Part shown: positions 2,316 to 41,900 of the stretch, in pieces
Position numbering within the stretch: the first letter of the stretch is position 1
Layout of the letters: every line of letters begins with the position of its first letter
NCBI GenBank assembly: GCA_035559535.1
Contig: DATMBG010000016.1
Coordinates: 1-56,230, forward strand
From: Candidatus Limnocylindrales bacterium
Lineage (GTDB): Bacteria; Moduliflexota; Moduliflexia; Moduliflexales; JAUQPW01
Length of the DNA: 56,230 nucleotides
Direction: 5' to 3'
Translations under genes and position numbers: made by a program
The notes under the pieces: model-generated
The model's database searches: none
What the model saw: the letters and a program-made list of their open reading frames with translations, nothing else
What the model was told of the DNA's origin: nothing

Positions 2316-2672
2316 ATGCATGAGATGGGACTCGCTAAGGCTATTTTAACCGTAGCACTGAATGCGGCAGAAGGTCAAAAAGTGCAACGAATCTGTTTGC
2401 AGATTGGAAAATTGCAGATGGTGGCGCCGGATAGTCTTGAGTTCTCATTCCAATTGGTGGCCGAGGGTACAACAGCAGCAAAAGCTGTGCTGGAGATCGT
2501 GGAAGTCCCTCCTTGCCTACGCTGCAAGCAATGTGGAGCCCAAAGTGAATTCAATCATCCGCCGTTTACCTGCACACGCTGCGGTGTTTCTGATATGGAG
2601 ATTGTGTCAGGAAACCAGGTCTTAGTAGATGCCGTGGAGCTGGAAAACGGTGTTACCATCAAATGCCGATGA
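2316..2672 (+). CDS. hypA: Hydrogenase maturation nickel metallochaperone HypA
   Basis: N-terminal MHE motif, two CxxC (CKQC, CTRC), context of hyp genes. Confidence 0.96.
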   Translation: MHEMGLAKAILTVALNAAEGQKVQRICLQIGKLQMVAPDSLEFSFQLVAEGTTAAKAVLEIVEVPPCLRCKQCGAQSEFNHPPFTCTRCGVSDMEIVSGNQVLVDAVELENGVTIKCR

Positions 2673-2731
2673 GAGTAGGGGCACAAGGCCTTGTGCCCCT
2701 ACTCAAGGCACAAGGCCTTGTGCCCCTACTC
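2673..2731. repeat. REP-like palindrome with 27-bp tandem duplication
   Basis: GAGTAGGGGCACAAGGCCTTGTGCCCCTACTC followed by AAGGCACAAGGCCTTGTGCCCCTACTC. Confidence 0.85.
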
Positions 2732-2773
2732 AAGCCTATCATCTGTCAGACGATCATCAACGACCTGATACCC

Positions 2774-5236
2774 ATGAGTCTTAAAGAAATTAAGAAGATC
2801 CAGAATAAAGTCAAAATAGAAGGGAATAGACGTCTCAAGATTATTCTACGGGGAGCTGTTCAAGGGGTTGGATTTAGACCTTTTATCTACCGCCTGGCAA
2901 CCCAACTCGAACTTCAGGGCTGGGTCTTAAACTCTCCCGAGGGAGTGCTTATTGAAGTCGAAGGTAAAGAAGAAAATTTAAATGCCTTTTTGCTCCACTT
3001 AGATAAAGAAAAACCACCCAGATCAATAATCCAAAGCCTTGAGTTCTCTCTTCTGGACCCCGTGGGTTTTAATAGCTTCGAGATAAGAAAAAGCGAAGCA
3101 ACAGGGGAGAAAAGAGCCCTTGTTCTCCCTGAAATAGCTACCTGTTCTGAATGCAGGGAGGAAGTATTCGACTCTCTCGATCGTCGCTTTCTTTATCCGT
3201 TTACAAATTGTACAAACTGTGGCCCCCGCTTTACTATCATTGAGGCACTTCCCTACGATAGACAGAACACCTCCATGAAGATCTTCAAGATGTGTCCAGA
3301 ATGCCGCGATGAGTACGAAGAACCCCAAAATAGGCGGTTCCATGCCGAACCAAATGCTTGTTCTGCATGTGGACCAACCCTGGAACTCTGGACTCCGAAA
3401 AGAGAGCCTATCGCAAAGGGACATAGAGCCCTTATCGCTGCAGCCGAAGCGGTAAGAGGTGGAAAAATTCTAGCCCTAAAGGGTTTGGGCGGATTTCACC
3501 TTATCGTAGATGCAAGGAATGAAAAGGCTGTAATTAAACTTCGTGAAAGGAAAGGACGAGAAGAAAAACCTTTTGCCCTTATGTTTCCGTCTTTGGATAC
3601 GGTAAAAAAATATTGTGAGGTCTCATCCTTTGAAGAACGCCTTCTCTGCTCTCCGGAAAGCCCTATTGTACTTCTTAAAAGATACCCCACAGGAGTCCGG
3701 CAAACCGGTTCCCTGGCTGCCAGAGGGAAGTTAAGAACGATGAACAAAAAGATAGCTCCCAGTGTAGCTCCTCATAACCCTTATCTGGGTGTCATGCTAC
3801 CTTATACGCCCCTTCACCATCTCCTGATGCAAGAACTTGGCTTTCCTGTTGTGGCTACAAGTGGGAACCTGACCGATGAACCGATCGTAATTGATGAAAA
3901 AGAAGCTCTGATCCGCCTTCAAGGAATTGCCGATCTCTTTTTGGTCCATAACCGTCCCATTATAAGGCATGTGGATGATTCCATTGCACGCGTAATCCTG
4001 GGAAGAGAGCTCCTCCTCAGACGTGCAAGGGGATATGCCCCTCTTCCCATCCGCCCTGTACAAACCCTTAATGGTAGCCCCCCTCTTCCTTCCCCGTCCA
4101 CGGGGAGGGTAGGGTGGGGGCTATCGGGGGGAATTAATCGTGCACCCTTGCCTAAAATTCTGGCTGTAGGAGCTCATCTAAAAAATACCATAGCAATTTC
4201 TCTGGGAGACCAGATATTTATGAGTCAGCATATAGGCGACCTTGAAACACAGGAAGCTTATGAGGCTTTTCAAAGGGTTATAAGGGACTTTAAAAAGCTC
4301 TACGAATTTGAACCTGAAGGGGTTGCCTGCGATATGCATCCGGATTTCCTTTCTACTAAGTACGCGAAAAGCCTGGGCCTGCCTGTGATAGAGATTCAAC
4401 ACCATCACGCCCATGTGGCTGCCTGTATGGCAGAGAATGAGTTAGAAGGTCCTGTTTTAGGAGTCTCCTGGGATGGAACAGGATACGGTACTGATGGAAC
4501 TATCTGGGGTGGTGAATTCCTTTGGGCTGATTATATTTCATTTCGACGGGTTTACCACTTTAGAACCTTTAGACTCCCCGGGGGGGAGAAGGCAATCCAT
4601 GAACCAAGAAGGACAGCTCTGGGGATTCTCTATGAACTCTTTGGTGAAGAAGCCGAACAGGTTATGGAAAAAAAGGAGATCCCCTTTCTTCGAACCTTTT
4701 GTGAAGAGGAGCTTAGAATTCTCGGGCAGATGATAAGGAAAGGGATAAATTCTCCCCTTACATCAAGTGCTGGACGTATCTTTGACGCCGTAGCTGCTTT
4801 AATAAACTTGAGGCAACGGGTGAGTTTTGAAGGACAGGCAGCTATGGAACTTGAATACGTGACCAGAGAGGGAATCAACTCCTCCTATCCCTTTGAAATC
4901 ACAAACCAAGAAATTATAGATTGGACTCCAATGATTTTAGCCCTCTTAGAAGATCTTCAAAAAGGAACGTCAAAGGATGTGATAGGAACAAAGTTCCATA
5001 ATACCCTCTCTGAAATTATCCTGCAGGTAGCTCATCTTATGGGTATGGAGAAAGTCGTGTTAACAGGAGGTGTATTTCAAAATCGATACTTAACCGAGCG
5101 TACCTGGAGAAGACTTGAGGAAGAAGGATTCAAACCCTATATCCATCAGCGAGTACCCCCCAATGATGGGGGTATATCCTTTGGACAAGTCATGGTAGCT
5201 GCTTCCCGTTTTTTGACATCCGTCCAGGGCTGTTGA
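2774..5236 (+). CDS. hypF: Carbamoyltransferase HypF
   Basis: Acylphosphatase motif GAVQGVGFRPF, Zn fingers CxxC x4, KGLGGFHL, QHHHAH, WDGTGYG, PPNDGG. Start moved from 2663 to ATG 2774 because the upstream in-frame part is REP sequence. Confidence 0.97.
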   Translation: MSLKEIKKIQNKVKIEGNRRLKIILRGAVQGVGFRPFIYRLATQLELQGWVLNSPEGVLIEVEGKEENLNAFLLHLDKEKPPRSIIQSLEFSLLDPVGFNSFEIRKSEATGEKRALVLPEIATCSECREEVFDSLDRRFLYPFTNCTNCGPRFTIIEALPYDRQNTSMKIFKMCPECRDEYEEPQNRRFHAEPNACSACGPTLELWTPKREPIAKGHRALIAAAEAVRGGKILALKGLGGFHLIVDARNEKAVIKLRERKGREEKPFALMFPSLDTVKKYCEVSSFEERLLCSPESPIVLLKRYPTGVRQTGSLAARGKLRTMNKKIAPSVAPHNPYLGVMLPYTPLHHLLMQELGFPVVATSGNLTDEPIVIDEKEALIRLQGIADLFLVHNRPIIRHVDDSIARVILGRELLLRRARGYAPLPIRPVQTLNGSPPLPSPSTGRVGWGLSGGINRAPLPKILAVGAHLKNTIAISLGDQIFMSQHIGDLETQEAYEAFQRVIRDFKKLYEFEPEGVACDMHPDFLSTKYAKSLGLPVIEIQHHHAHVAACMAENELEGPVLGVSWDGTGYGTDGTIWGGEFLWADYISFRRVYHFRTFRLPGGEKAIHEPRRTALGILYELFGEEAEQVMEKKEIPFLRTFCEEELRILGQMIRKGINSPLTSSAGRIFDAVAALINLRQRVSFEGQAAMELEYVTREGINSSYPFEITNQEIIDWTPMILALLEDLQKGTSKDVIGTKFHNTLSEIILQVAHLMGMEKVVLTGGVFQNRYLTERTWRRLEEEGFKPYIHQRVPPNDGGISFGQVMVAASRFLTSVQGC

Positions 5237-5247
5237 ATATTCAACAT

Positions 5248-5276
5248 GGCAGGTCAAACGTCCCATTTGACCTGCC
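5248..5276. repeat. REP-like palindrome (family C, AGGTYAAACGTCYCRTTTGAC)
   Basis: GGCAGGTCAAACGTCCCATTTGACCTGCC; relatives at 8816-8835 (reverse), 24545-24591 (two copies) and 41906-41930 (reverse). Confidence 0.7.
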
Positions 5277-5339
5277 ATATAAGGGTAAAACTAACTTAAT
5301 CCCATACCTTTGATCCACGACTAAAAAGGAGATGAGAGA

Positions 5340-5597
5340 ATGTGTCTGGCAATTCCCGGAAAAGTAGTTGAAATTTTCCATGAAAACGGGCTTAAAATGG
5401 GTAAGGTCGATTTTGATGGGATCACCCGAAAAGCCTGTTTTGAATATGTACCGGATATACAGCTTGGGGATTATGTTCTGGTTCATGTAGGATTTGCCTT
5501 AAGCAAGGTTGATGAAGAAGAAGCCAAAAAGGTTTTTGAGTTCCTGGATCAGATGAATGAACTTGGAGAACTTAGAACCCTCCAGGAAGACAACTAA
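5340..5597 (+). CDS. hypC: HypC/HupF hydrogenase chaperone
   Basis: MCLAIPG N-terminus, GDYVLVHVGFA. Confidence 0.98.
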   Translation: MCLAIPGKVVEIFHENGLKMGKVDFDGITRKACFEYVPDIQLGDYVLVHVGFALSKVDEEEAKKVFEFLDQMNELGELRTLQEDN

Positions 5598-5629
5598 AAA
5601 TAGAGGTCATTTTTAGTAGGGTTTAAACC

Positions 5630-6739
5630 ATGAAATACCTTGATGAATATAGAAATGAAGAGACCATCTCTCGCATGGTAGATAAGATCCACCAGTTGGT
5701 GAAGCATCCCTGGGTTATCATGGAAGTCTGTGGCGGGCAGACCCATACGATTGTTAAATACGGAATCGATGAACTTCTTCCCAAAGAAGTTACGCTGGTT
5801 CACGGTCCTGGATGCCCGGTGTGTGTGACCTCCCTTGAGATGATCGACAAAGCCTTGGAAATAGCCTCTCGCCCCGACGTTATTTTCTGCTCCTTCGGAG
5901 ATATGCTGAGGGTTCCAGGTTCCAAAAGAGACCTCCTTGCCGTTAAATCGGAGGGAGGAGAGGTAAGAATCGTTTACTCCCCCCTGGATGCTCTGAAGAT
6001 AGCCCAGAATAATCCCCATAAGAAGGTGGTTTTTTTTGCTGTGGGTTTTGAGACAACGGCTCCGGCAAACGCCATGGCAGTATGGCAGGCCAAAAAGTTA
6101 GGGATAAAAAACTTTTCCCTCTTGGTCTCCCATGTCCTCGTCCCTCCTGTAATTGCCTCCATCCAACAGTCACCCCAGAATCGTATTCAGGGATACCTGG
6201 CTGCCGGACATGTCTGTACCATCATGGGGTGGAAAGAGTATGAACCGATTTCAGCCCATTATAAGGTTCCCATTGTAGTCACCGGGTTTGAACCTTTGGA
6301 TATACTCCAGGGTGTCTACCTGGTCGTAAAACAATTAGAGGAGGGAAGGGCCGGGGTTGAAAATCAGTATGCAAGAGCTGTAAAGCGCGAGGGAAATATA
6401 TCCGCTCAAAGGCTCATATTCAACGTTTTTGAAGTCACAGATAGAAAGTGGCGAGGAATAGGAATTATTCCGAAAAGTGGTTATAAGCTGAGGCATGAGT
6501 TCGGGGAATACGACGCAGAACGACTCTTTGAGGTTGATGAGATAAAGGCCCAGGAGTCTCCTGCCTGTATAAGCGGCCAGATTCTAAAAGGCTTAAAGAA
6601 ACCGCATGAGTGCCCAGCCTTCGGTAAAGAATGTACCCCCGGACATCCGCTGGGAGCCACCATGGTATCTTCGGAAGGAGCATGCGCCGCTTATTACAAC
6701 TATGGCAGATATTTAAAGCTACCAGCCATGAGTCCTTAA
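5630..6739 (+). CDS. hypD: Hydrogenase formation protein HypD
   Basis: [22 protein letters not shown]-terminal Cys cluster and [12 protein letters not shown]. Confidence 0.98.
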
Positions 6740-6982
6740 TTGCCAACCCCTAAAGGATCCAAAATCTAAGATAAGAGACTCGTAGTCACAACAGGGAAGT
6801 GGAAAAGGCCGTTAGTAGGGGCACGGCGGCGCTATACCCGAACTCAGTGGGACGCCCATGCTCCCAAGCTTCCTCATCCCCCGCTTGCGGGGGATGAGGG
6901 GGAGAGAGAAGGAAATTATCTAACTTCTTTCCTCACCGACTTTTCCATAAAAAATCGGTGATTCAAAATAAAGAAGGCTTCA

Positions 6983-8038
6983 ATGTCCGAAAACGTCGAA
7001 TTCGTCCTTAGTTGTCCTTTACCAATAACAGATTATAAAAATATACTTCTCGGTCACGGAAGCGGAGGAAAACTATCCGCGGATCTGATAAAGAAAATAT
7101 TTCTTTCGCAATTTAAAAATCCCTATCTCGGACCTCTTAACGATGCGGCTGTTTTTGAGGTAAATGGAACAAGACTTGCGTTTACAACAGACTCCTATGT
7201 GGTAAATCCTATATTTTTTCCGGGAGGAGATATTGGAAAGCTTGCGGTTAATGGGACTATCAATGACCTTGCGGTAAGTGGTGCAAGACCTCTTTATATA
7301 AGTGCAGCCTTTATTCTTGAAGAGGGCTTTCCCGTAGAAAACCTATGGAAGATCGTTCTTTCCATGAAAAGCGCCTGCGAAGAAACCGGGGTTTTACTGG
7401 TTACAGGAGATACAAAAGTAGTAGATAAAGGAAAAGGAGATAAAGTTTTTATAAATACCTCGGGTATAGGGATAGTCGAAAAGGATATCCAGATCTCTTC
7501 TGACCGGGCAAGACCGGGGGATAAAGTCATCCTAAGTGGTGCAATAGGAATTCATGGGATTGCTATTCTGTCCGTCAGAGAAGGACTGGAATTTGAGACT
7601 CATATCTTAAGTGATACGGCCCCGTTAACCTCTCTGGTCATGGATATGTTGAGTGTAAGTACAAAAATCCATTGTATGCGGGATCCCACACGGGGCGGGA
7701 TTGCAAGTGCCCTCAATGAGATTGCCTCTAGCTCCAAAGTCGGAATCAGAATAGAAGAAAATAAAATCCCTATACCGAGAGAAGTCCAAGGAGCCTGCGA
7801 GATGTTAGGGTTGGACCCTCTGTATGTAGCCAACGAGGGAAAACTCATTGCCATCGTGGATAGAGAAGATGCCGAACGTATAGTTGAAAAGATGAAGACC
7901 CATGCTTTAGGTAGAGAAGCCGCTATTATCGGAGAAGTCCTTGATGATCACCCCGGTATAGTTTTTATGAAAACCCGAATAGGCGGTACACGGGTGGTTG
8001 ATATGTTGACCGGAGAGCAACTTCCAAGAATTTGTTGA
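6983..8038 (+). CDS. hypE: Carbamoyl dehydratase HypE
   Basis: HGSGG, TTDSYVV, GDTKVV, RDPTRGG, C-terminal PRIC. Confidence 0.98.
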   Translation: MSENVEFVLSCPLPITDYKNILLGHGSGGKLSADLIKKIFLSQFKNPYLGPLNDAAVFEVNGTRLAFTTDSYVVNPIFFPGGDIGKLAVNGTINDLAVSGARPLYISAAFILEEGFPVENLWKIVLSMKSACEETGVLLVTGDTKVVDKGKGDKVFINTSGIGIVEKDIQISSDRARPGDKVILSGAIGIHGIAILSVREGLEFETHILSDTAPLTSLVMDMLSVSTKIHCMRDPTRGGIASALNEIASSSKVGIRIEENKIPIPREVQGACEMLGLDPLYVANEGKLIAIVDREDAERIVEKMKTHALGREAAIIGEVLDDHPGIVFMKTRIGGTRVVDMLTGEQLPRIC

Positions 8039-8142: not shown

Positions 8143-8763
8143 ATGAAAAGGTTATTCCTCTGGATCTTCTTTTTATCATCAGGATTATGGAGTTGTTCAA
8201 AATTACCCCGGGAATCTCCAGGACCTCTAACACCTATAACCCCGGAAGGAACTCTTGTGATTCGCTTCCAGGAATATGGGGCCTCTTTTACCAAAACCCA
8301 GAAAAACACCATTGAAAATTATGCAAAACCTATCCGAAGAATAATCCCGGCAGGGGAAAGCTGGATCTTAATTGCAAATTCATACTCGGATGAGGAATGG
8401 TTAAAAGCTTTCGGAAATTACTGCTCAGGATCAGGCCTCCTTAAGTCTAAAGGAGGTATTTTGATAGACAGGTTCTACGACGCTCATATCTGGATCGGGA
8501 TCTCCCTGAAAAGTGACCGATGCCTGAAGGCTTTTCAAGCTTATAAGTATTTGAAACCTGTCATCTCTAACCATGAGTCTCTCTTTAACGAAGAAATCAA
8601 ATACCACTTCTCTGAAATTTATAATCGATTAAATATAACCTGGACTCCCACCCTGTCTCCCCCGTCCATAGGAAGGAATAAGATGGAAGCTATACCCTAT
8701 ACCCTCAATAAAGAAGTCGCTAACCGCCTGATGTGCACAGACTATTGCTTTGATAAGTTGTAG
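8143..8763 (+). CDS. Hypothetical lipoprotein
   Basis: 206-aa ORF with signal peptide ending in a lipobox-like LWSC; no recognisable family. Confidence 0.7.
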   Translation: MKRLFLWIFFLSSGLWSCSKLPRESPGPLTPITPEGTLVIRFQEYGASFTKTQKNTIENYAKPIRRIIPAGESWILIANSYSDEEWLKAFGNYCSGSGLLKSKGGILIDRFYDAHIWIGISLKSDRCLKAFQAYKYLKPVISNHESLFNEEIKYHFSEIYNRLNITWTPTLSPPSIGRNKMEAIPYTLNKEVANRLMCTDYCFDKL

Positions 8764-9005
8764 CAAACTCTATCTGCTCTCCTTTATGCATCAAAAGCTA
8801 CACCAAAACCTCTTATCAAACGAGACGTTTAACCTCCCTGCGCTCTACCTTCCAAAGGTATAAAAACTTCTTGACGAGATATAGGGAAAAATAGTACAAC
8901 AAGTAATTAAAGCAGCACAGGGCACTATCAAAGTGCTTACAGGTCTTACCAAGGGGGATCTTTAATTATCATCGTAATTTCTTCTAAAGGGGAGGAGGAG
9001 GTACC

Positions 9006-12000
9006 ATGAACAGTAATTGGAAGGTGGCAACTTTTGTCTTTCTCTTTTTGTTTGTTCTTACAGGCGGTGGCTTTTACTGGAAGTATCTGGAAGCTTTCGA
9101 AAAGGGGAATCGGTTGAATCAGCTTCAAACCAGAATGCAACAGGATAAATCAACCCATTTAGAAGAAGTCAATGCGCTTAAAAAGCAGATCGATAATCTG
9201 AAATCGGAAAACCAGACTCTTTTAACAACCCTTAAAGCTAAAGCAGAACAGGAAGCTCTCTTGAATAAAAGTACCCAACGCGTTAAGGATCTGGAACAGG
9301 AACTGTCGGATTTAAGGACAAGACTCCAGGAAGAAGTGGAGGGACGGGAAAAGATCATATCAGAACAAAATGAAAAAATCCAGGGGTTGACGGAGCAATT
9401 AGAGGAAATGGAAAAAAATCGGGCAAACCTGGAAAATCAGGTCTCTGAAGGGACTCAAAAACTGTCGGCTTTGGAACAGAAATATCAAAAGGAAATAACT
9501 GCAAAAGAAACCGAGCTTGCCACGGCAAAGGATAAGATCAATCAACTGACCAAACAACTGGAAGAAATACAAACCAACCGCTCGGATTTAGAAAAACAGA
9601 TCACAGATCTGAAGGAAAAGTTTAAAGCAGACCTGGCCGATAAAGAAAATTCCCTTATAGAAGCCAATACTAAAATCGATCAACTCACAAAACAACTGGC
9701 CCAGAGCGAAGACGCCCGCTCTAAATTGGAAAAACAACTCTCAGACCTGAGCCAGAGGTTTCAAACCGAGGTCTCAAAACGTGAGGCTTCCCTCGTTGAG
9801 CTGACTAAAAAGGTGGGAGATCTGAATACTGCAAAGCTGGAAGCAGAGAAACGGCTGGCAAATCTCACAGAACTGCAACGGAATATTAAGGAGAAAGAAA
9901 AGCTCATAGAAGATCAGAAAAAACAGTTGGACCTGTTAAATCAACGATGGGAAACCACGGAAACAGAAAGATCTGAACTGGCCAAGCGGGTGAGTGATCT
10001 GGAAACCTTGTTGGCAGAAAAGACAGACAAAATAAAAAACCAGGAAACGGCTCTGGAGGAGAAAATTCGAGAAATTACTTCGCTGACCCGACAACTGGAG
10101 GATCTGAAGGCCGTTAAATCGGGCCTTGAAGCTCAACTGGCAGAAGCTCGCTCGGGTCTGGAAAATGAAATTAAAAATAAAGGAACCCTCATCGAAGAAC
10201 ACAATAACCTGGTAGCCTCCCTTACCCGACAATTAGATACGCTTAAGTCCGGAAAAGCTGAATTGGAAAAGCAAGTAACAGAACTTAAAACGGCCCTGGA
10301 AGAGCTCACGAAGAATAAAGAGGCCCTCGCAGAGGAGCTAAAAAAGAAAGAAGAGGCCCTCTCTGAACAGAATAGTCAAAATCAGGCCCTCAGGAGACAG
10401 TTGGAGGACCTCCAAACGGCCCGTGCCCAATTAGAACAACAACTGACAACACTAAAAGAAAATCTCCAAAAAGAATTGAAAACCAGAGACGCCTTAATCG
10501 AAGAATATGAACGTTTGATTACTTCGCTTAAAAAAGAGCTGGAGGAATTGAAATCCAGTAAAGCCGCCCTGGAACAACAGTTGAAGAACCTTCAATCTAA
10601 ACTGGAAGACCTCATCCAAAGCCGGAAAGACCTGATCCAGGAAGTAGAAAGAAGAGATAATCTTCTCAAGGAACAAAACCAACGCCTCACTGCTCTAACC
10701 CGAGAGTTAGAGGAAACCCAGGTTGCTAAAGGCCGATTGGAAATTCGGCAGATTGAGATAACCCGACAATTAGAGGACTCAAAGTCGGAGAAGGATAAGC
10801 TGGAAACTCAACTCCAGGAAGTAACGAAGCAGCTAGAAGAAGCCCGGGTAGCAATGGCCGATAAAACCCGACAACTGGAAGAAACCCAATCGGCTAAAGA
10901 TAGGCTGGAAACTCGATTAACCGGCCTGACCCAACAGTTAGAAGAAACCCAGGCCGCTAAGGATAAACTGGAAGCCCAACTGGCCAATAAAACCAAACAA
11001 CTGGAAGAAGCCCAATCGGTTAAAGACAGGCTGGAAACTCAACTGGTCGATAAAACCAAACAATTAGAGGAAACCCAGGCCGCTAAAGACAAACTGGAAA
11101 CTCAACTGGCCGATAAAACCAAACAACTGGAAGAAACTCAATCGGCTAAAGATAAGCTGGAAACTCAATTGACCAATCTAACCCAACAGTTAGAGGAAAC
11201 CCAAGCTGCTAAAGACAAACTGGGAACTCAACTGGCCGAGGTTGCCCGACAACTCCAGGACATCCAACTGACCAAAGATGGATTGGAAACTCAACTGGTC
11301 GATAAAACCAAACAATTAGAGGAAACCCAGGCCGCCAAGGATAAGCTGGAAACTCAATTGACCAATCTAACCCAACAGTTAGAGGAAGCCCGGTCGGCTA
11401 AAGGTAAATTGGAGGCTCAGTTGGCTGATCTGAAAGCAGCCTTTGAAAAGGATGCCCTGGTTCGGGAAACTAAAATCCAGGAACAGGCAACCCGAATCGC
11501 TACTTTGGTTCAACAGGTGGAGGAAGCCAGGGCCGCAAGATCCAATCTGGAACAACAATTTAAAGAGGTCAATCAAAAATTGGATGAGGTTATTAAAAGT
11601 AATGAAAAGCTTATCCAGGAACTTAAAAATAAAGAAAAAACCCTGGCCGAGCGTGAAAAGAAAATAGTAGACTTTGCTATGAAGGTAGGATATATAGCCG
11701 ATGTCAGTTTCGTTAAAGAAGATCTGGAACAGCAACTGGCAACCCTTACAGCCTGGTTTACCCGGGAGATTCAGGATAAAAAAGCTTTGATAGAAGCCCG
11801 TGAGAAGAAAATTGAGGAATTGACTACTCAGATTCGTGAGATTGAAACTAAAAAATCTCATTTAGAGAATGAGCTGGCCCGACTTAAAAAGGAATTGGAG
11901 GAGGAACGGAGTAAACAAGGAGTACGGGTTGCACAACTCACGGCACAAATTGAAGGTCTTACCAGGCAGATTCAAGAGATGGAGCGCATCCGAGCTGACC

Positions 12001-12869
12001 TGGAAAAACAATTATCCGATCTCAAGGTAAAGTTTGACCGGGAAATCGGGGAGAAAGATATCCACATTGCAGGATTACGCCAACAGATCGAAGAGAAGGA
12101 ATCTCAGATCACTTCTCTTAAAGAAAAGGAAAAGGAACGGGAAGCTTCTCTGGAACAACAACGAAAAGAAATTGAAAACTACAAGACCCAGATTGAGCAA
12201 CTTCAAGCCAAACTGGCTGAGCAGGAACAGGAAAGCCAGTATAAACTGGAGAAGCTGGAAGCCGTTTATAGTGAGCTCCTGGAAGAGCTCGGCAAAGGGA
12301 TAGAAGCCGGAAACATAGAGGTAGCTGCTATCCAACAAAAGCTGGCCCAACTGGAAGAAACCAGAAAAATTAAGATGGACCGGCTGAAAACTACCTATGA
12401 AAGTCTGGTCAGAAACCTGGCAGAAGAGATCAGACAACATACAGTAACGGTGGAACGAGCCAGGGAACAACTCTCGGTGAACATTATCGATCAGATTCTC
12501 TTTGACTCGGGAAGTGCAACCATTAAAAAAAGTGGCATTGAGGTTCTCAATAAAGTCGGCATGCTCCTGAAAAACCTGGACGATAAGGCTGTTCGAATCG
12601 AAGGACATACCGATAGCCGCCCCATTGGACCTGATCTACAACCTATCTTTCCGACTAATTGGGAACTCTCTGTGGCCAGAGCCGTAAACGTGGTGAGATA
12701 TTTGCAAGAAAAACTTAAACTGGATCCTACAAAATTGTCTGTTGCCGGCTATGCGCAGTATAAACCTGTCGCCAGTAACAGCACGGAGGAGGGAAGAGCT
12801 AAAAATCGACGGATTGAGATCGTGGTCTATTCGCTTCCACAGTACGGGCGCAATGCATTGCGCCCCTAA
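9006..12869 (+). CDS. Membrane-anchored giant coiled-coil protein with C-terminal OmpA/MotB-like peptidoglycan-binding domain
   Basis: Strong SD GGAGGAGG; N-terminal hydrophobic helix; ~1100 aa of heptad-rich E/K/Q/L sequence; C-terminal LFDSGSA, IEGHTD, NWELSVARA, RAKNRRIEI. Confidence 0.93.
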   Translation: MNSNWKVATFVFLFLFVLTGGGFYWKYLEAFEKGNRLNQLQTRMQQDKSTHLEEVNALKKQIDNLKSENQTLLTTLKAKAEQEALLNKSTQRVKDLEQELSDLRTRLQEEVEGREKIISEQNEKIQGLTEQLEEMEKNRANLENQVSEGTQKLSALEQKYQKEITAKETELATAKDKINQLTKQLEEIQTNRSDLEKQITDLKEKFKADLADKENSLIEANTKIDQLTKQLAQSEDARSKLEKQLSDLSQRFQTEVSKREASLVELTKKVGDLNTAKLEAEKRLANLTELQRNIKEKEKLIEDQKKQLDLLNQRWETTETERSELAKRVSDLETLLAEKTDKIKNQETALEEKIREITSLTRQLEDLKAVKSGLEAQLAEARSGLENEIKNKGTLIEEHNNLVASLTRQLDTLKSGKAELEKQVTELKTALEELTKNKEALAEELKKKEEALSEQNSQNQALRRQLEDLQTARAQLEQQLTTLKENLQKELKTRDALIEEYERLITSLKKELEELKSSKAALEQQLKNLQSKLEDLIQSRKDLIQEVERRDNLLKEQNQRLTALTRELEETQVAKGRLEIRQIEITRQLEDSKSEKDKLETQLQEVTKQLEEARVAMADKTRQLEETQSAKDRLETRLTGLTQQLEETQAAKDKLEAQLANKTKQLEEAQSVKDRLETQLVDKTKQLEETQAAKDKLETQLADKTKQLEETQSAKDKLETQLTNLTQQLEETQAAKDKLGTQLAEVARQLQDIQLTKDGLETQLVDKTKQLEETQAAKDKLETQLTNLTQQLEEARSAKGKLEAQLADLKAAFEKDALVRETKIQEQATRIATLVQQVEEARAARSNLEQQFKEVNQKLDEVIKSNEKLIQELKNKEKTLAEREKKIVDFAMKVGYIADVSFVKEDLEQQLATLTAWFTREIQDKKALIEAREKKIEELTTQIREIETKKSHLENELARLKKELEEERSKQGVRVAQLTAQIEGLTRQIQEMERIRADLEKQLSDLKVKFDREIGEKDIHIAGLRQQIEEKESQITSLKEKEKEREASLEQQRKEIENYKTQIEQLQAKLAEQEQESQYKLEKLEAVYSELLEELGKGIEAGNIEVAAIQQKLAQLEETRKIKMDRLKTTYESLVRNLAEEIRQHTVTVERAREQLSVNIIDQILFDSGSATIKKSGIEVLNKVGMLLKNLDDKAVRIEGHTDSRPIGPDLQPIFPTNWELSVARAVNVVRYLQEKLKLDPTKLSVAGYAQYKPVASNSTEEGRAKNRRIEIVVYSLPQYGRNALRP
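10690..11430 (+). repeat. Intragenic 63-bp (21-aa) tandem repeat, about 11-12 units
   Basis: Units like LEETQAAKDKLETQLADKTKQ; near-identical DNA units at 11031/11283 and 11157/11346. Confidence 0.9.
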
Positions 12870-12964: not shown

Positions 12965-15181
12965 GTGCGTGTTATGAGAAGACTTATCGGTTACGTGTTT
13001 ATAACGATGGTGTTTATTATCGGAACATTAACAACGAAGATTTCTCTAGGCGAAAACTTAAAAGATGAGCCGATTGATCTGGATCTAAATACTTTTATGC
13101 CGGTAGAAGAGGTCAAACCTGGAATGAAAGGAATTGGTAAAACGGTCTTTTCAGGTACACGGATCGATGAATTCCAGGTTGAAATCGTGGGGGTACTAAA
13201 AAATATAACCCCTCGAGGGGACATGATTTTGGCCAGGGTAACCGGAGGTCCTCTTCCTTTAGAACGAACCGGCGTTATCGCCGGTATGAGTGGTAGCCCT
13301 ATCTATATAAACGGTCGATTGGTAGGGGCTTTGGCTTATACCCTGAGCATTTTTCAAACGGAGCCCATGGCCGGAATAACGCCCATTCTGGAAATGATAG
13401 CAGAGTATGAACGGAATAAGGCAGACCTGGAGGGAAATAGAGGCCAGATCTTGAAGGCCGACCGCAAAGAGGAATCCTGTGTGAACAAATCTTGTGCATC
13501 CACCCCTCGGGATACCGCTTCCCTACCGACCTCTATGCTGGGAAGTCGGATTAAAATGTTCAATTTTTGGAACTCTGTGATGAATCCTTGGGCGCAGGAA
13601 TGGAACCTTTCAAGTCGACTCGGAACCTTTGAGGCTTCCCTTGAGGATCTGGATGTTGAAATTCAAAAATTAAAAGAATGGTTTGCCCTCCGTAATCCAG
13701 GATTCTCCTGGCCCATAGATAATAACCGACAAACCCAGGATTCCGAACCCTGGAGATTTTCCTTCCAGACATCGGGCCCGCCTGTGAGTGGGTTACCCTC
13801 TTCTTTTATACCTATTAAAACCCCCTTGACGCTGTCCGGCATCGATGAACGGGTTCTGAAAGAAATAACTCCTCTACTGGAAAGTTACGGGATTGTTCCC
13901 GTTCAAGGAGGCGAAGTAGCCGGTTTGTCGGGATCCATACAGGAAACCTTGACCCAAAACTCCTCTGCCTCTGCATCTTCAGCGGTGGAAATGCTACGCC
14001 CCGGTTCTTCTCTGGGAGTTCAACTCATTCGAGGAGATTTAACGGCAAGTGGTTTTGGTACCGTCACCTATGTCAATAAAAACCACCTGATCGCCTTCGG
14101 ACATCCTATGTTCGCAGCGGGTAAGGTAGATATCCCCATGACCACCTCCTACGTCCATATGGTTATGGCAAATCAAATCAACTCCTTTAAGATCGCATCT
14201 CCCCTTACCGTCATGGGAAGTATTCGACAAGACCGACGTACCGGTATTACAGGAGTCATGGGAAGTCCTCCTCAAATGGTGCCTTTAAAAGTGGTCGTGG
14301 AATCTGAAAAGGATCATCGAGTAAATGAATACAATTTTGAAATCATCAATGATGATTTCTTTGCACCGCTCTTTGTAAGAATCAGTTGCCTGAATTCACT
14401 CTTTGCTTCCTTTAGGGCCATCGGAGATGTTACCATTAAGGTTCAATCGGAGGTTTACTTAAAAGATCGGCCTCCCCTGATCCAGAAGAACGTTTTCTCT
14501 GGAGATGAAGCTTCGGTATTGGCTTCTTTAGCCTCCGTCAGGCCAGTAGGGATCTTGATGAATAACCCCTTTGAGGATGTTCAGGTGGAGAAGATTCTCA
14601 TTCACCTGTCGGTGTCGGAAAAACTGGAGGTGGCTAAGATCGAGGGGGCTCGGGTAAGCAGAGACGTGGTTAAACCGGGAGAATCTACCCGCTTGACGGT
14701 CTTTATCCAGCCTTTCCATGGTGAGTTAATTGCAGAAAAGGTCGATGTAACTATCCCAGAAAGCTCACCCCGGGGGGAATACCGATTGATGGTTTGTGAT
14801 TCGCAAATCATCAATACCTTTGAAAAATTTAGAGCCCCCCTGAACTTCGAACCCCAATCCCTGACCCAACTCATGAGCTTATTGGAAACTGAAGAACAGA
14901 ATAATGAAATTATCGTTCAGTTGATTCATCCGAAATCTGGAGTCACCATCAAAGGCCGGGAATTTTCATCTCCTCCGGTGTCCCTTCTGGCTATTATGAA
15001 TTCCTCCCGGCACGTGGGGGAAGGAGGCCCGACCCGAGGAACCATCTTCACACGACAGCGTATTCCTACCAACTATATGATATCCGGGTGTGAACTCCTC
15101 CCTATCACCGTAGACGACAAATATGGAATAGACTTAAATACGGACGGCAGTCCTAAAATTAAAAAAGGAGATAATCTATAG
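12965..15181 (+). CDS. SpoIVB peptidase S55 domain-containing exported protein
   Basis: Signal/TM N-terminus; GMKGIGKTVF, GVIAGMSGSPIY, GTVTY, IAFGHP, QDRRTGI motifs. Confidence 0.88.
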   Translation: MRVMRRLIGYVFITMVFIIGTLTTKISLGENLKDEPIDLDLNTFMPVEEVKPGMKGIGKTVFSGTRIDEFQVEIVGVLKNITPRGDMILARVTGGPLPLERTGVIAGMSGSPIYINGRLVGALAYTLSIFQTEPMAGITPILEMIAEYERNKADLEGNRGQILKADRKEESCVNKSCASTPRDTASLPTSMLGSRIKMFNFWNSVMNPWAQEWNLSSRLGTFEASLEDLDVEIQKLKEWFALRNPGFSWPIDNNRQTQDSEPWRFSFQTSGPPVSGLPSSFIPIKTPLTLSGIDERVLKEITPLLESYGIVPVQGGEVAGLSGSIQETLTQNSSASASSAVEMLRPGSSLGVQLIRGDLTASGFGTVTYVNKNHLIAFGHPMFAAGKVDIPMTTSYVHMVMANQINSFKIASPLTVMGSIRQDRRTGITGVMGSPPQMVPLKVVVESEKDHRVNEYNFEIINDDFFAPLFVRISCLNSLFASFRAIGDVTIKVQSEVYLKDRPPLIQKNVFSGDEASVLASLASVRPVGILMNNPFEDVQVEKILIHLSVSEKLEVAKIEGARVSRDVVKPGESTRLTVFIQPFHGELIAEKVDVTIPESSPRGEYRLMVCDSQIINTFEKFRAPLNFEPQSLTQLMSLLETEEQNNEIIVQLIHPKSGVTIKGREFSSPPVSLLAIMNSSRHVGEGGPTRGTIFTRQRIPTNYMISGCELLPITVDDKYGIDLNTDGSPKIKKGDNL

Positions 15182-15185
15182 TTAA

Positions 15186-15445
15186 CCCGGAGTCCTTAGT
15201 CTGGAATCTGCAGTTCCCCGATATCCGGCTACCAGGGAAGAAGACAGATTGTGACGTGGGGAATGGATGACGGGGGACGCGGCGACTATCTTCGTCGTAT
15301 CTTTCCTGTCCCCACATTCCCATGTCCCTGCCTCCCCGTGTCCAATTCAGGAGGGGTATCTTTGGGGTAGGGGTGCAATGCCTTGCGCCCGTACTAGTTT
15401 TCCTGAAGAACACCAGATCCCGGATCCTGGACCCCGGACAACCAA
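15186..15445. repeat. Nested intergenic repeats (7-mer-like outer arms, purine/pyrimidine inner arms, REP)
   Basis: CCGGAGTCC../..GGACCCCGG arms, GGGGACGCGG../..CCCCGTGTCC arms, and family A REP at 15367-15394. Confidence 0.5.
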
Positions 15446-15455
15446 AATTAGAAGT

Positions 15456-17636
15456 ATGAAGAAGTTTGTAAGGGCGAACCCCTTAGCATCCTCAAGGCAG
15501 GTCTGGGTGTTCGCCTTTTGGGTCATAGTCCTTTTGCTTTATCCGGGCCCGTTTTCTGTAGAGGCCGTGAATACCATGTTCTGGGAAACCAGATCCCAAC
15601 GGGATTTTAGTAGAGGAGAAGCCGATGGGGTCTCCATTACCAATGAAGGAGAGGTAGTGTTGTCTCCCAAATTAACGCCGGTTCTTAATACAGAGGATAA
15701 AGAGTTGTTCGTTTGGGCACTGGCTATGGATGCCGATGAAAACCTCTACGCGGCCACAGGAAACAACGGGCGCATCTTTAAAATCTCCAAGGAGGGAACC
15801 CCCTCCCTTTTTTTTGATTCTCCAGAGGTCAGTATCCTGAGTTTAGCCCTTGATGCACAGGGGCATATTTACGCTGGTAGTTCCCCCGATGGGGTCATTT
15901 ATAAAATAGATCCCCAGGGAACCTATCGAACCTTTTTTAATACCGGTGAAACCTACGTATGGGCTTTGGTTGTGGACACTTCCGGAAATATCTTCGCCGC
16001 TACAGGGGATAAAGGCCGAATCTATAAAATCTCCCCCGAAGGTAAAAGCCGTATTTTATTCGACTCCGGACAATCCCATATTACCGCACTCATCCCAGAT
16101 GGGCAGGGAGGGTTCTATGCAGGCAGTGAAGGGGATGGAATTATATATCGGGTAAGTCCTGAAGGAAAAGTCTCTGTCCTCTATGACGCGGAAGAAAACG
16201 AGATCCATGCCCTGGTCTTAGATCGCCAGGGAAACCTTTATGCTGCTGCCTTGGCCAGCCGAACGACAACCCCTGTTTCCAGGGATAAAAAACCCCCTGA
16301 AGAAAAGGATACTAAAGAAAAGCGAAGCATTAAAACCTCCAGCATTTACAAGATCACCCCGGAAGGAGCCGTTACAAAAATATGGAGCTCTCCCTCCAGC
16401 TTCGTCTATTCCATGATCCTGGATAAAAATGATAGACTCCTGGTTGGAACTGATGACCGAAGTACGGTCTATGAAATCTCCTCAGATGGAGAATTTACAA
16501 CCCTTTTCCGTACCGATAAAACCCAGGTCCTCTCCCTCCTTCAAGGAGCAAATCAGGATATCTACCTGGGAACCGGAGATACGGCCATGGTTTACAAAAT
16601 AGATCTACACGCCCGCGAAATGGGAACCTTAATATCCCCAACTTATGATGCTCAAATCATTTCAAAATGGGGAAAACTTTCCTGGAAAGGGACCCCCCAG
16701 GGAATAAAATTTATGACCCGAACCGGAAATACAGAAAAACCGGATAGTACCTGGAGTCCCTGGTCTGAGGAATATACCGATAAAGATGGAACCAATATTA
16801 CCAGCCCACCAGCTCGCTTTATTCAATGGAAAGCTATCTTAGAACCAACTCCGGACATGGATTCTCCGGTGCTCAAAGAGGTTACGATTTCTTATCTCCC
16901 AAAAAATCTGAGTCCTCGAATCAATCGACTGAATGTGATCTCCTTCCGGGAGGAACCACCGGCACCTCCTCCTGTAAAGGAAATCAAAAAACCCGATGAG
17001 AAGGATGAGAAAAGCGAAGAGAAAACGCCCCCTCCCCCAAGCCCCATCCGCCGGGTTAAAGTAGAACGAGGTAAAAAACTTATTACCTGGGTGGCCGAAG
17101 ATCCCAATAATGATACCCTGGCCTATGAGCTTTATTTTAAGGGAGAAGAGGAAAAAAATTGGAAGTTGCTGGAGGAAGATATCCGAGAAAACTCTTATCT
17201 CCTGGAGACCGAATCTTTACCCGATGGATGGTACCAGATCAAGATTAAAGCCAGTGATGCTCCTTCCAATCCCGACGATAAGGCGTTGACGGCAGAGAAA
17301 ATCAGTGAACCCTTCTTAATCGATAATACCCCTCCCGTAGTAAAATCTATTTCTACGCACCGAGATGCAACGACCGGGGATCTTCTGGTTTCCGTTCAGG
17401 CAATGGATAATGCAAGTCCACTTAAAAACGCACAATATTCCCTGGATGCCGGAGAGTGGAAAACCGTTTTTCCAAAAGATGAAATATTGGATTCGAAGGA
17501 AGAAGAATTCGAGATTTCTTTAAAAAACCTCTCTCCCGGAGAGCACACGCTGGTCTTTAAGGTCACAGATACCTCGGGAAATGTAGGAGCCGGAAAAACC
17601 GTTATTCAAAGCCCCTCCCCGCTCTCTCAAAAGTAG
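15456..17636 (+). CDS. Exported beta-propeller repeat protein with C-terminal Fn3/Ig-like domains
   Basis: Repeated [LV]xxDxxGNxYAxTGxxGxIYKI blades; TRTGNTEKPDxTWSPW; DNTPP and YSLDAGEW Ig-like motifs. Start moved to ATG 15456 because the upstream in-frame part is repeat DNA. Confidence 0.85.
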   Translation: MKKFVRANPLASSRQVWVFAFWVIVLLLYPGPFSVEAVNTMFWETRSQRDFSRGEADGVSITNEGEVVLSPKLTPVLNTEDKELFVWALAMDADENLYAATGNNGRIFKISKEGTPSLFFDSPEVSILSLALDAQGHIYAGSSPDGVIYKIDPQGTYRTFFNTGETYVWALVVDTSGNIFAATGDKGRIYKISPEGKSRILFDSGQSHITALIPDGQGGFYAGSEGDGIIYRVSPEGKVSVLYDAEENEIHALVLDRQGNLYAAALASRTTTPVSRDKKPPEEKDTKEKRSIKTSSIYKITPEGAVTKIWSSPSSFVYSMILDKNDRLLVGTDDRSTVYEISSDGEFTTLFRTDKTQVLSLLQGANQDIYLGTGDTAMVYKIDLHAREMGTLISPTYDAQIISKWGKLSWKGTPQGIKFMTRTGNTEKPDSTWSPWSEEYTDKDGTNITSPPARFIQWKAILEPTPDMDSPVLKEVTISYLPKNLSPRINRLNVISFREEPPAPPPVKEIKKPDEKDEKSEEKTPPPPSPIRRVKVERGKKLITWVAEDPNNDTLAYELYFKGEEEKNWKLLEEDIRENSYLLETESLPDGWYQIKIKASDAPSNPDDKALTAEKISEPFLIDNTPPVVKSISTHRDATTGDLLVSVQAMDNASPLKNAQYSLDAGEWKTVFPKDEILDSKEEEFEISLKNLSPGEHTLVFKVTDTSGNVGAGKTVIQSPSPLSQK

Positions 17637-17746
17637 CCAGGGTTCAGGATTTCCTTCCTGCCAATAGGGGCCTGTGACAACAGGTCCCTACTCCTTCTTG
17701 TGGAGTGCAGGCCCCTTGCCGACTTCTCTTTAGACCGGGGAAGAAT

Positions 17747-33537: not shown

Positions 33538-34311
33538 TTATTTCATCTCGAAAGCTGTATCAATCTGATTTAAAACGTTCTCTAATTTTGAGATTACAGA
33601 ATCCTCCCCTTGATTTACCCTGGCCATTACCGTATCAAGATTCTGAATTACCTGTTCTTTATCTGGGAGATGAGATTGGACAGCCATGGATTTGATTCTC
33701 TGAAGGTGAGATTGAAGAGTTTTATAGGAAGTACCGGTATAAATATCCCATTTAGCCTGTAAGAGAGCACTTTTAAGCTGTTCTGTACGCAGATCTGTAG
33801 CAATTTGATCCAGTTGGGTTTGTATTCGGGCAAGTTGATTCCGAACCCCCTCGAGACGGTTGGACACCTCATTTAAAGAATTAAGCCGGGGTTGAAGGGT
33901 ATTCAGTTGTTGGGTTGTTTCTCGGTAAGCTGTGTTAAGATGGGTTAAATTTTCATTGACTTTGGCCAGGTCTTCTTCGATAACCTTACGAAAGGTATTT
34001 AAGTCGGTTAGATTTTCTTCTAATTGATGGATGTTGGCGGGAATGGCAGTTTCGGTAGTTCCGGGTTCGGATTTCCCTTTACCGGTTGGATAGACGACCA
34101 CGTAGAAGGCAAACAGAAGAGCAACAAACGAAAGAGCCAGTGAGAGATAACTTGCAGATTCTGAAAAACTATCTCCGCGATAGATCGGAGAACCGTCTGG
34201 TGTATCGGGGGGGGATATAAAATCCTTTTTTACCTGACTTTTTTGCATATTCTCTAAGGCTTCCAGTTCTGCAAGTCCACGTTTCTTCATCATTTCGATC
34301 TCTTTTTCCAT
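33538..34311 (-). CDS. Hypothetical single-TM coiled-coil protein
   Basis: SD GGAGG; TM helix LSLALSFVALLFAFYVVVY followed by heptad repeats. Confidence 0.82.
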   Translation of the reverse strand: MEKEIEMMKKRGLAELEALENMQKSQVKKDFISPPDTPDGSPIYRGDSFSESASYLSLALSFVALLFAFYVVVYPTGKGKSEPGTTETAIPANIHQLEENLTDLNTFRKVIEEDLAKVNENLTHLNTAYRETTQQLNTLQPRLNSLNEVSNRLEGVRNQLARIQTQLDQIATDLRTEQLKSALLQAKWDIYTGTSYKTLQSHLQRIKSMAVQSHLPDKEQVIQNLDTVMARVNQGEDSVISKLENVLNQIDTAFEMK

Positions 34312-41252: not shown

Positions 41253-41900
41253 ATGATAAGGAACAATCTAAAAGAGTATATATCCCGTTCTCAAAGGGAT
41301 AAAATAAAACCTATTGCAATGATAGTTGGTAGTCTTGTCATCATCGGTATATTGGCAGGTTCTATGTACTGGGCGGCCAGGTCGGATAGCAAGAAAGACC
41401 ATGTCAGTGCAAAGGTTGAGACGACGAGTCCTGTCAAAACTAATAATCCGGAGATCAAACCAGATAGTAGAGAATCAAAGGCTGAGGTTAAAACCTCTGA
41501 TGCCAATACCCAGACCCAGGCTCAAGAGATCAAAAGCTTAGAAGACGAGATTGCGCGACTCCGCAAGCAAAATGAAGAATTGTCCTTGAAGGTAAAGAAC
41601 TTAGAAAAACAGCTTCGTGACACTGCAACTGCTACCAATCGGACTACCGTTACCAAACCTGAAGCCGTCGAAGAGAAAAAACTTGAAACCGCCAAATCTT
41701 CCGAAGAGAAAAAGCTGGCAAAATCCGTAGATAAATCCCGAGGGAAGGAAAATAAAATTTCCTATACGGTAAAAAAGGGGGATACCCTGTGGAGTATCGC
41801 CGATAAATACGGGGTCAGTGTCAATGCTATCAAAGAGTGGAATAATTTACGGGATGAAAAACTTGCGATAGGGGAAGAAATTACGGTTATAAAGCCTTAA
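41253..41900 (+). CDS. Membrane-anchored coiled-coil LysM protein
   Basis: TM helix, short coiled coil, C-terminal YTVKKGDTLWSIADKYGVSV..IKEWNNL. Confidence 0.92.
   Translation: MIRNNLKEYISRSQRDKIKPIAMIVGSLVIIGILAGSMYWAARSDSKKDHVSAKVETTSPVKTNNPEIKPDSRESKAEVKTSDANTQTQAQEIKSLEDEIARLRKQNEELSLKVKNLEKQLRDTATATNRTTVTKPEAVEEKKLETAKSSEEKKLAKSVDKSRGKENKISYTVKKGDTLWSIADKYGVSVNAIKEWNNLRDEKLAIGEEITVIKP

Follow-up and report, generated by a model that had tools for sequence, protein, structure and literature searches.

Envelope spacing and mechanics in bacteria are understood, to our knowledge, for a few model tethers only: Lpp, Pal, OmpA and OmpM. Lpp is a short (<60 amino acids, aa) trimeric outer-membrane lipoprotein that is attached covalently via its C-terminal Lys. 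Its coiled coil has been described as a link between membrane and peptidoglycan, the length of which matters for the geometry of the envelope (PMC5736177, PMC8824477). Long coiled-coil stalks connecting wall and membrane have been reported for Omp-alpha, OmpM and Deinococcus SlpA (PMC3387000, PMC10628300, PMC9388160), PapS has been reported to form a static ribbon in the periplasm by which the cell is shaped (PMC11369160), and CrvA of Vibrio has been described as a periplasmic coiled-coil protein (PMC7695739). Here, we analyze a giant gene located at positions 9006..12869 on the + strand of a stretch of 56,230 nucleotides (nt) (positions 1 to 56,230 of contig DATMBG010000016.1, assembly GCA_035559535.1, Candidatus Limnocylindrales bacterium), which as a whole is referred to below as the window. 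To judge by its sequence, the product of this gene would work like the Lpp, Pal and Pba tethers, with a stalk like those of Omp-alpha, OmpM and SlpA, and is a member of none of these classes.

The giant protein consists of an N-terminal hydrophobic helix, a coiled-coil rod and, at the C-terminus, an OmpA-like domain, and comparison with database proteins suggests that it represents an extreme of rod length within a large, common and uncharacterized family, the architecture itself being common in databases. We propose that it is an inner-membrane-anchored, periplasmic, dimeric rod which serves as a lateral membrane-to-wall tether. As a whole, this reading appears to us to have an even chance of being correct; its architectural part is likely, and the mechanical role is advanced tentatively, as a possibility that is rather more doubtful than the architecture. 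A preliminary description of the locus had proposed one transmembrane helix, about 1120 residues of nearly uninterrupted coiled coil and an intact OmpA/MotB-type domain, and this order is borne out: the gene is a single open reading frame (ORF) for 1287 aa that starts at the first ATG following a stop, hydropathy is high only at the N-terminus, heptads extend over most of the rod, and the Pfam OmpA domain is present. The features of the gene are the following (AF2 stands for AlphaFold2 and TRF for Tandem Repeats Finder).

8985..9002 (approximate), + strand: Shine-Dalgarno-like G/A-rich run; the upstream letters end ...AAAGGGGAGGAGGAGGTACC immediately before the ATG at 9006
9006..9023, + strand: residues 1-6, N-terminal tail MNSNWK, placed on the cytoplasmic side because the wall-binding domain needs export
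9024..9080, + strand: residues 7-25, the sole hydrophobic helix by hydropathy, ending GGGFYW and read as an uncleaved inner-membrane signal-anchor
9081..12479, + strand: residues 26-1158, predicted coiled-coil rod (Pro-free; heptad measure; all-helical AF2 models)
9387..10730, + strand: residues 128-575, modules of 46, 53 and 56 aa, each starting with an LTxQLEE...LExQL core
10731..11423, + strand: residues 576-806, about eleven 21-aa (three-heptad) tandem repeats, seen with TRF and in 21-residue rows; the length-variable part
11688..11702, + strand: residues 895-899 (GYIAD), possible hinge at a break in the AF2 monomer, with a dip of heptad contrast at about 898-903; outside the two-copy model
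12342..12830, + strand: residues 1113-1275, MotB-type C-terminal module comprising a linker helix and an OmpA-like peptidoglycan-binding domain
12498-12809, + strand: residues 1165-1268, Pfam OmpA core

Each of the described systems shares part of this design. MotB, PomB and MotS share the N-terminal helix that crosses the membrane once and a wall-binding domain that forms dimers (in our case, a dimer at the level of models), but the giant protein lacks the Asp in the helix and a MotA partner in the window, and a rod of 1133 residues replaces the short plug or linker. Lpp is similar in that a coiled coil joins membrane and peptidoglycan; the giant protein differs in having no lipobox and no Cys and in ending ...NALRP, its helix anchor would place it in the inner membrane, its rod is about 20 times longer, and its binding to the wall would be non-covalent, through the OmpA-like domain. 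Pal, the Pba/PA1041 family, YiaD, YfiB and PapS likewise combine a membrane anchor with a non-covalently binding OmpA-like peptidoglycan domain, but possess a short linker or a globular N-terminal domain instead of a long coiled coil, and their matches in NCBIfam (YiaD-type, 105.3 vs 175; PA1041-type, 61.7 vs 250) and the Protein Data Bank are sub-threshold. In Omp-alpha, OmpM and SlpA, an N-terminal SLH domain binds the wall and the protein is inserted in the outer membrane, whereas the giant protein has the reversed polarity and an OmpA-like domain; no SLH domain is found among its 15 Pfam matches at E <= 0.01. Because the lipobox, the Lys for covalent linkage and the SLH domain are all absent, the protein is placed outside the Lpp and SLH-stalk classes. 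CrvA and crescentin are also long coiled-coil proteins acting along the envelope, but have neither a membrane helix nor an OmpA-like domain. The Pfam Filament profile does exceed its cut-off at residues 91-206 (65.2 bits vs 40), but this match covers 116/313 profile positions, where the sequence is biased toward coil, and Rod_CreS, the model for the rod of crescentin, scores 45.6 bits, below its cut-off of 100, so that these scores are not taken to indicate sequence kinship with intermediate-filament-like or crescentin proteins.

Heptad periodicity of the rod was scored in segments of 28 aa by how much more often hydrophobic residues occupy positions a/d than the other positions; of the segments covering residues 31-1158, a fraction of 0.846 exceeded the threshold, compared with 0.068 +/- 0.024 (maximum 0.131) in 100 shuffles. 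Position a is occupied by L (44%), I (20%), K (13%) and V (9%), and position d by L in 50% of the cases. Half of the residues of the whole protein are Glu, Leu, Lys or Gln; it contains no Cys anywhere and no Pro in residues 1-1205, and Gly is rare in residues 26-894. The heptad register shifts between the modules in the N-terminal half of the rod and is unbroken over approximately residues 478-819, that is, across the rod midpoint. The LTxQLEE motifs of the N-terminal half are spaced by 53, 46, 133, 46, 56, 46 and 56 residues, with autocorrelation peaks at 46, 56 and 102, and the 21-aa units are encoded by a 63-nt tandem repeat present in 8.9 copies at 10855-11413 (TRF). The modules of 46, 53 and 21 aa named in the preliminary description are therefore confirmed, and its list was incomplete, given that modules of 56 aa are also present. 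A coiled coil rises by about 0.1485 nm per residue, and an ordinary periplasm is 20-30 nm wide. At full extension, the ~1133 rod residues (26-1158) would span ~168 nm, so the earlier estimate that the rod far exceeds the normal width of the periplasm holds.

At the other end of the rod, the giant protein is a member of Pfam OmpA (PF00691): residues 1165-1268 match profile positions 1-98/98 with 72.1 bits (cut-off 27.2; E 4.9e-20). The motifs GHTD (1200-1203), SVARA (1222-1226) and NRRIEI (1267-1272) are intact, and D1203 of GHTD and R1225 of SVARA are present and line up with the corresponding motifs of MotB domains of known structure. OmpA-like domains act on peptidoglycan, and it is by their conserved Asp and Arg that the diaminopimelate of the stem peptide is bound. 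The C-terminal module is predicted to bind peptidoglycan non-covalently. The solved structures nearest to the last 150 residues are the wall-binding domains of MotB, MotS and PomB (E from 5.1e-28 for 6ysl_A to 1e-19), and the comparison with NCBIfam and the Protein Data Bank shows the same proteins to be closest to the last 160-170 residues, including the helix that precedes the core.

The closeness of this module to MotB, MotS and PomB is what would be expected if the protein were the MotB-like half of the stator in some unknown motor driven by ions, with its MotA/ExbB-like partner encoded elsewhere, and there are long relatives, P0032-P0034 (718-735 aa), in which a MotB-type helix with a conserved Asp is combined with ~500 coil residues and an OmpA-like domain and which would be stator-like units on a very long stalk. 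The helix of the giant protein (residues 7-25, VATFVFLFLFVLTGGGFYW), however, contains neither Asp nor Glu, and no MotA/ExbB/TolQ-type gene was detected when the 31 ORFs of the 56-kb window that have >=150 aa and do not overlap were scanned (the scan included one 85-aa ORF at 5340-5597 and left out the other ORFs <150 aa as well as 8 overlapping, antisense or window-end ORFs). The NCBIfam stator models score far below their cut-offs (MotD, 136 vs 283; MotB, 119.8 vs 301; MotS, 113.9 vs 264), and so do the models of PRK09039-type 'peptidoglycan-binding protein' (NF006543, 108.9 vs 305; NF006542, 90.9 vs 388; NF006545, 62 vs 372). A stator role, which had been doubted from the outset on the grounds of the missing Asp and partner, is highly improbable. 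Zorya ZorB was also considered and rejected, as its models match the MotB-type domain only (68.7 bits) and none of the three neighbors scanned (8143, 12965 and 15267) gave a ZorA match; PADLOC yields for the giant protein nothing beyond generic MotB-domain and coiled-coil matches.

The relatives of the giant protein were collected by searching its C-terminal 198 residues against 1.84 billion representatives, which gave 57,047 matches at E <= 0.001, 659 of them at E <= 1e-30. Among the best 150 matches, the median length is 330 aa, with five proteins of >=700 aa and three of >=1000 aa, and the three longest contain little coil. When simple rules are applied to this set, a lipobox is assigned to 75 proteins, an N-terminal hydrophobic helix to 52, an internal helix to 4 and no anchor to 19, which are probably fragments, so that an N-terminal lipobox or helix is found in 127/150. 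The lipobox rule misses clear cases, such as P0326, and the share of lipoproteins is accordingly a lower bound. The residue following the lipobox Cys is Val in 52/78 and Gly in 12/78. Between anchor and domain, the lipoproteins have a median of 183 aa and the helix type 167.5 aa (best 150), mostly heptad-periodic. A word-based search among proteins of <=706 aa produced a similar picture, with a median of 317 aa, 79 lipoboxes and 24 helices among the best 120, and the nearest clusters in the ESM Atlas, where the sequence is present but no structure of it, are OmpA proteins of 334-433 aa, which serve as leads only. The short relatives, whose sources are uncultured Desulfatiglandales, Deltaproteobacteria, NC10, Nitrospirota and Planctomycetes, bear automatic names only ('OmpA family protein', 'chemotaxis protein MotB').

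The giant protein has all three parts that define this family, namely the anchor, the heptad-repeat middle and the C-terminal module with the linker helix, which is 47-58% identical to those of family members. The three parts follow in the same order, but in typical members, which have 317-330 aa, anchor and domain are ~170-180 residues apart, and half or more of these proteins are lipoproteins, whereas the giant protein has no Cys and ~1133 rod residues. An N-terminal membrane tether followed by an exported coil and domain would thus be the rule in the family. Comparison of rod lengths among homologs, which the preliminary description had recommended, goes beyond it in indicating that the rod is usually ~170-180 aa long and on a lipoprotein anchor, and that its length is readily changed. 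No characterized relative was found among the matches of the searches with the C-terminal part or in the literature, and no protein with an anchor, a long coiled coil and an OmpA domain is described there, as judged mainly on titles and abstracts; a close homolog of this length with a known function, named initially as a finding that would speak against the proposal, did not come up in these searches.

A search limited to 707-2253 aa revealed additional long forms, including P0002 (904 aa; domain 57% identical), P0007 (994 aa), Nitrospiraceae lipoproteins of up to ~740 aa, and P0010 (1336 aa) with an extra cytoplasmic domain ahead of the helix. Among the 199 proteins examined for coil residues, the giant protein has the most, 1125, followed by 810 and 744. 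In the corresponding domain tree, where >=400 coil residues are present in 36/199 rows, the long and short states require 15 changes, at least 5 of which are forced, that is, required by well-supported branches; a tree of 70 rows, made of 25/36 long rows (the near-identical P0012-P0027 thinned to 3) and 45 randomly drawn short rows, requires 10 changes, at least 3 of them forced. Given that resolution is poor in both trees and that long proteins were deliberately over-represented in the sample, all that can safely be said is that long rods arose several times. P0106 (355 aa), which the tree groups with P0002 and which could have been taken for its short sister, was set aside as probably partial, since it lacks an anchor and begins mid-coil.

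A genome scan with the whole protein, in which six peptide patterns matched at least 600 stretches, gave 4 loci among the matches listed, one of which, L001, located in a metagenome-assembled genome, has an ortholog; the other three (two in Fictibacillus and one in an Elusimicrobia metagenome-assembled genome) match the OmpA domain only. The gene order in L001 is identical (hypE, small ORF, giant gene, S55-like gene, propeller gene, trmB, ubiX), and the ortholog (L001 10001-13678) has 1225 aa and is 86% identical. Internal gaps are limited to two, both in L001, at residues 655-675 (21 aa) and 726-767 (42 aa), inside the repeat array; they comprise whole repeat units and keep the heptad frame. 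The ratio of nonsynonymous to synonymous substitution rates (dN/dS) against L001 is 0.153 for the whole gene, compared with 0.154 for hypE and 0.158 for the S55-like neighbor, and the values by region are 0.16 (rod, residues 31-575), 0.19 (repeat array), 0.09 (rod, residues 831-1158) and 0.06 (domain). The rod sequence is under purifying selection while its length shifts in steps of ~3.1 nm, and because dN/dS is low and the indels in L001 are whole units, we regard this as a real, constrained gene with an adjustable length. The rod of the L001 ortholog contains one Pro, at residue 288 (ANLPELQR), in the place of a Thr in the window protein.

The position of the protein in the cell depends on the N-terminus. 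The only hydrophobic stretch is located there, with the 19-mers that start at residues 1-13 scoring >1.0 in hydropathy. An alternative to an anchor is a cleaved Sec signal peptide, in which case the mature protein would be a soluble periplasmic fiber that is held by its peptidoglycan-binding end and decorates or thickens the wall. Such cleavage would fit a hydrophobic core of just 12 residues before the Gly run with the small residues T-G-G-G next, and P0002, the N-terminus of which is of the same type, has the motif A-S-A in the place of the Gly run. Set against this are the helices of P0153, P0164 and P0053, which are 20-22 residues long, flanked by charges and end in GG[FY][FY][FY], so that the Gly/aromatic motif lies within the helix; P0002, P0085, P0053 and P0153 share with the giant protein the helix type ending in Gly and aromatics. 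Furthermore, residues 1-35 are identical in L001, and since most family members are tethered at the N-terminus by a lipobox, tethering looks conserved. Because the helices of relatives end in the same motif and N-terminal tethering is the family norm, we consider that the helix probably stays as a membrane anchor, and the soluble-fiber alternative unlikely. The rod would be periplasmic because the wall-binding domain must sit outside the cytoplasm and because most relatives, being lipoproteins, are exported; the predicted topology is with the tail inside and the rod and domain exported.

Whether the rod is extended and how its chains associate was addressed with structural models. The AF2 monomer of residues 1-500, built from the single sequence (predicted local distance difference test score, pLDDT, 70.4), consists of helices 5-231 (227 residues) and 241-499 (259 residues), and that of residues 800-1287 (pLDDT 67.7) of helices 801-894, 900-1022, 1025-1100 and 1106-1167, with the OmpA part poorly modeled (pLDDT <50). 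These monomers fold the helix back once and three times, respectively, as would a rod that is folded back or antiparallel, with anchor and domain close to each other in a compact or half-length arm; there are Gly-containing breaks at 895-899 and 1101-1105, and in an antiparallel dimer, each end would carry an anchor and a domain. The lone break in the model of residues 1-500, however, falls halfway along the 500 residues modeled, where there is neither Gly nor Pro, as would a modeling artifact, and is read as the folding back that is usual for an amphipathic helix on its own; the break at 1023-1024 vanishes in a model of two copies, in which the contacts are parallel and in register. The hairpins were for these reasons rejected as evidence of folding back, being probable artifacts. 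Residues 26-894 contain no Pro and rarely Gly, the register is unbroken across the rod midpoint, and both L001 indels lie on one side of it, which a matched hairpin would tolerate poorly. Folding into short bundles, named initially as a finding that would overturn an extended rod, finds no support in the models, which have monomer helices of 227 and 259 residues and a two-copy coil that is continuous over 960-1095; a folded-back or antiparallel rod is improbable in our view.

The two-copy model of residues 960-1287 reached a score of 0.50, a mark attained by 21/30 proteins with solved structures of two copies of a chain and by 0/23 with solved structures of a single chain, and the best control scored 0.00; the runs agree in >=65% of contacts, with partner pLDDT >=77. 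The contacts of lowest error connect residue i to residue i (e.g. 1024-1024 and 999-999), confident contacts follow at a spacing of 3-4 over 960-1095, continuously across 1023-1024, and the domains touch symmetrically via 1197, 1216-1231 and 1241-1253. The a/d positions are rich in Leu, Ile and Val, with Lys/Arg at a. Of the g to e'(i+5) pairs (n=115), 15 are attractive and 5 repulsive, and 15 attractive pairs were reached in 4% of 2000 shuffles, so that the charge pairs lean weakly to parallel pairing. Taken together, the models support a parallel, in-register dimer with paired wall-binding domains.

The mechanism that we propose is as follows. In a homodimer, the 19-residue N-terminal helix of each chain would hold the protein in the inner membrane with the 6-residue tail inside the cell, the ~1133 residues that follow would pair in the periplasm as a parallel, in-register two-stranded coiled coil, and the two MotB-type OmpA-like domains would pair and bind the peptidoglycan of the sacculus non-covalently. 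Since 168 nm exceeds the distance from the inner membrane to the wall many times over, the rod would be tilted out of the membrane plane by a few degrees at most, nearly flat on the wall, and would tie a point of the inner membrane to a point of the sacculus >100 nm away. The rods could act singly or bundled with their neighbors as a periplasmic ('periskeletal') layer, and their length would be set by the tandem three-heptad repeats, gained or lost in whole units.

The opposite geometry is that of an upright spacer that sets the distance of a wide periplasm or a sheath, as an inner-membrane counterpart of Lpp or Omp-alpha. Coiled-coil envelope spacers are on record, Lpp (PMC5736177, PMC8824477) and Omp-alpha as an anchor of the toga (PMC3387000), and whole-unit repeat changes are the way in which a spacer would be retuned. 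Against a spacer, ~168 nm is several times any ordinary periplasm, the peptidoglycan is close to the inner membrane, so that an upright rod needs a wall >100 nm away, and typical rods of the family have ~170-180 aa. The organism gives a further, weak hint: the SecD encoded in the window is 83-97% identical to its closest relatives, and its nearest named relatives, at 59-61%, are candidate division KSB3, Candidatus Vecturithrix granuli and Candidatus Moduliflexus flocculans; the words 'sheath' and 'periplasm' are absent from the main text of the KSB3 genome paper, which deals with a different organism (PMC4312070). We regard the spacer as improbable. Among the three functions initially offered (a spacer for a wide periplasm or sheath, a lateral periplasmic filament and a polar or septal tether), the lateral filament alone fits the geometry without an exotic envelope, and the wide-periplasm spacer gained no support here.

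A number of points weigh against the lateral tether. The charges flanking the helix, one Lys before and net +1 after, do not decide its orientation, and with a hydrophobic core as short as 12 residues, T-G-G or G-G-G could be a signal-peptidase site. The confidence of the AF2 monomers is modest, and the breaks at 895-899 and 1101-1105 could be real hinges. The two-copy model, which covers residues 960-1287 only, shows no confident contacts for 1096-1196, its pass is compatible with trimers or higher bundles, and the dimer score may in part be memory of solved MotB/PomB domain dimers. A single ortholog locus is available among the matches listed, and the 9.4-nm gap in length between close orthologs argues against a precise ruler, while it says little on a tether. 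The neighboring genes (the hyp genes, the lipoprotein, the S55-like and the propeller protein) point to no function, and the placement of the organism near KSB3 is tentative, as it is made on one marker, SecD.

If rods of the lateral tether were to bundle, they would form a fiber layer in the periplasm that is stapled to the inner membrane and the sacculus, a 'periskeleton' stiffening the envelope or transmitting force in a filamentous, possibly gliding bacterium; we offer this as an unlikely extension. The named KSB3 organisms are reported to be filamentous with a diderm envelope (PMC4312070) and are said to glide (PMC6390638), and a fibril layer has been described in cyanobacteria without a named protein (PMC9326267). 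If the bundled layer were true, the giant protein would be a first molecular candidate for envelope fibril arrays of the kind that microscopy has shown in gliding filamentous bacteria, and its short lipoprotein relatives would be a widespread class of non-covalent membrane-to-wall tethers in anaerobic phyla. To the few model tethers, the family would add a modular design of anchor, adjustable coiled coil and MotB-type wall-binding dimer that is common in uncultured anaerobic lineages. In its giant version, this design forces the geometry, as a ~168-nm rod must run along the wall and not across the periplasm; it is a concrete case for asking whether bacteria build periplasmic skeletons anchored in membrane and wall, and the whole-unit repeat changes between close relatives make up a natural length series.

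At the DNA level, the AT skew is 0.383 over 10001-12000, and two antisense ORFs lie inside the giant gene, at 11379-11861 (- strand, 160 aa) and 12075-12608 (- strand, 177 aa), which are probably by-products of the repetitive, purine-rich coding strand. Rfam and transfer RNA scans detected nothing close to the giant gene. In a scan for promoters and terminators, promoter-like sites were fewer than in shuffles and no clear terminator was found between the giant gene and its downstream neighbors, the sole strong terminator-like hairpin of the + strand being at 17665-17690, after the two downstream genes; we do not claim an operon on these grounds. The adjacent genes, given as context, are:

8143..8763, + strand: 206-aa predicted lipoprotein of no known family, with a lipobox-like LWSC at the N-terminus
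12965..17636, + strand: two downstream genes, syntenic in L001, for a 738-aa S55/SpoIVB-like and a 789-aa beta-propeller/Ig-like (immunoglobulin-like) protein

The 206-aa predicted lipoprotein has no Pfam or PADLOC match, and its counterpart in L001 (L001 9574-9858) stops at 94 aa. The gene of the 738-aa protein (12965-15181) begins 96 nt downstream of the giant gene; the product has a partial SpoIVB/S55 peptidase match at residues 47-127 and a GMSGSP motif, with no His in its first 150 residues, and could be a protease that is inactive, permuted or split. A hydrogenase maturation cluster (2316-8038) with hypA-like, hypF, hypC, hypD and hypE genes lies directly upstream of the giant gene and the lipoprotein gene, the hypA-like ORF (118 aa) being named from its sequence alone.

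Elsewhere in the window, an array of clustered regularly interspaced short palindromic repeats (CRISPR) at 4-1278 contains 18 copies of a 37-nt repeat with a start-to-start distance of 71-75 nt and runs off the 5' end; no cas genes were found among the window ORFs scanned. A 257-aa protein with coiled-coil-type matches only is encoded at 33538-34311 (- strand), adjoining a 347-aa protein with a weak P-loop match. Finally, a 215-aa protein encoded at 41253-41900 combines a coiled coil with a C-terminal LysM domain and is a second, small case in the window of a coil joined to a wall-binding domain.

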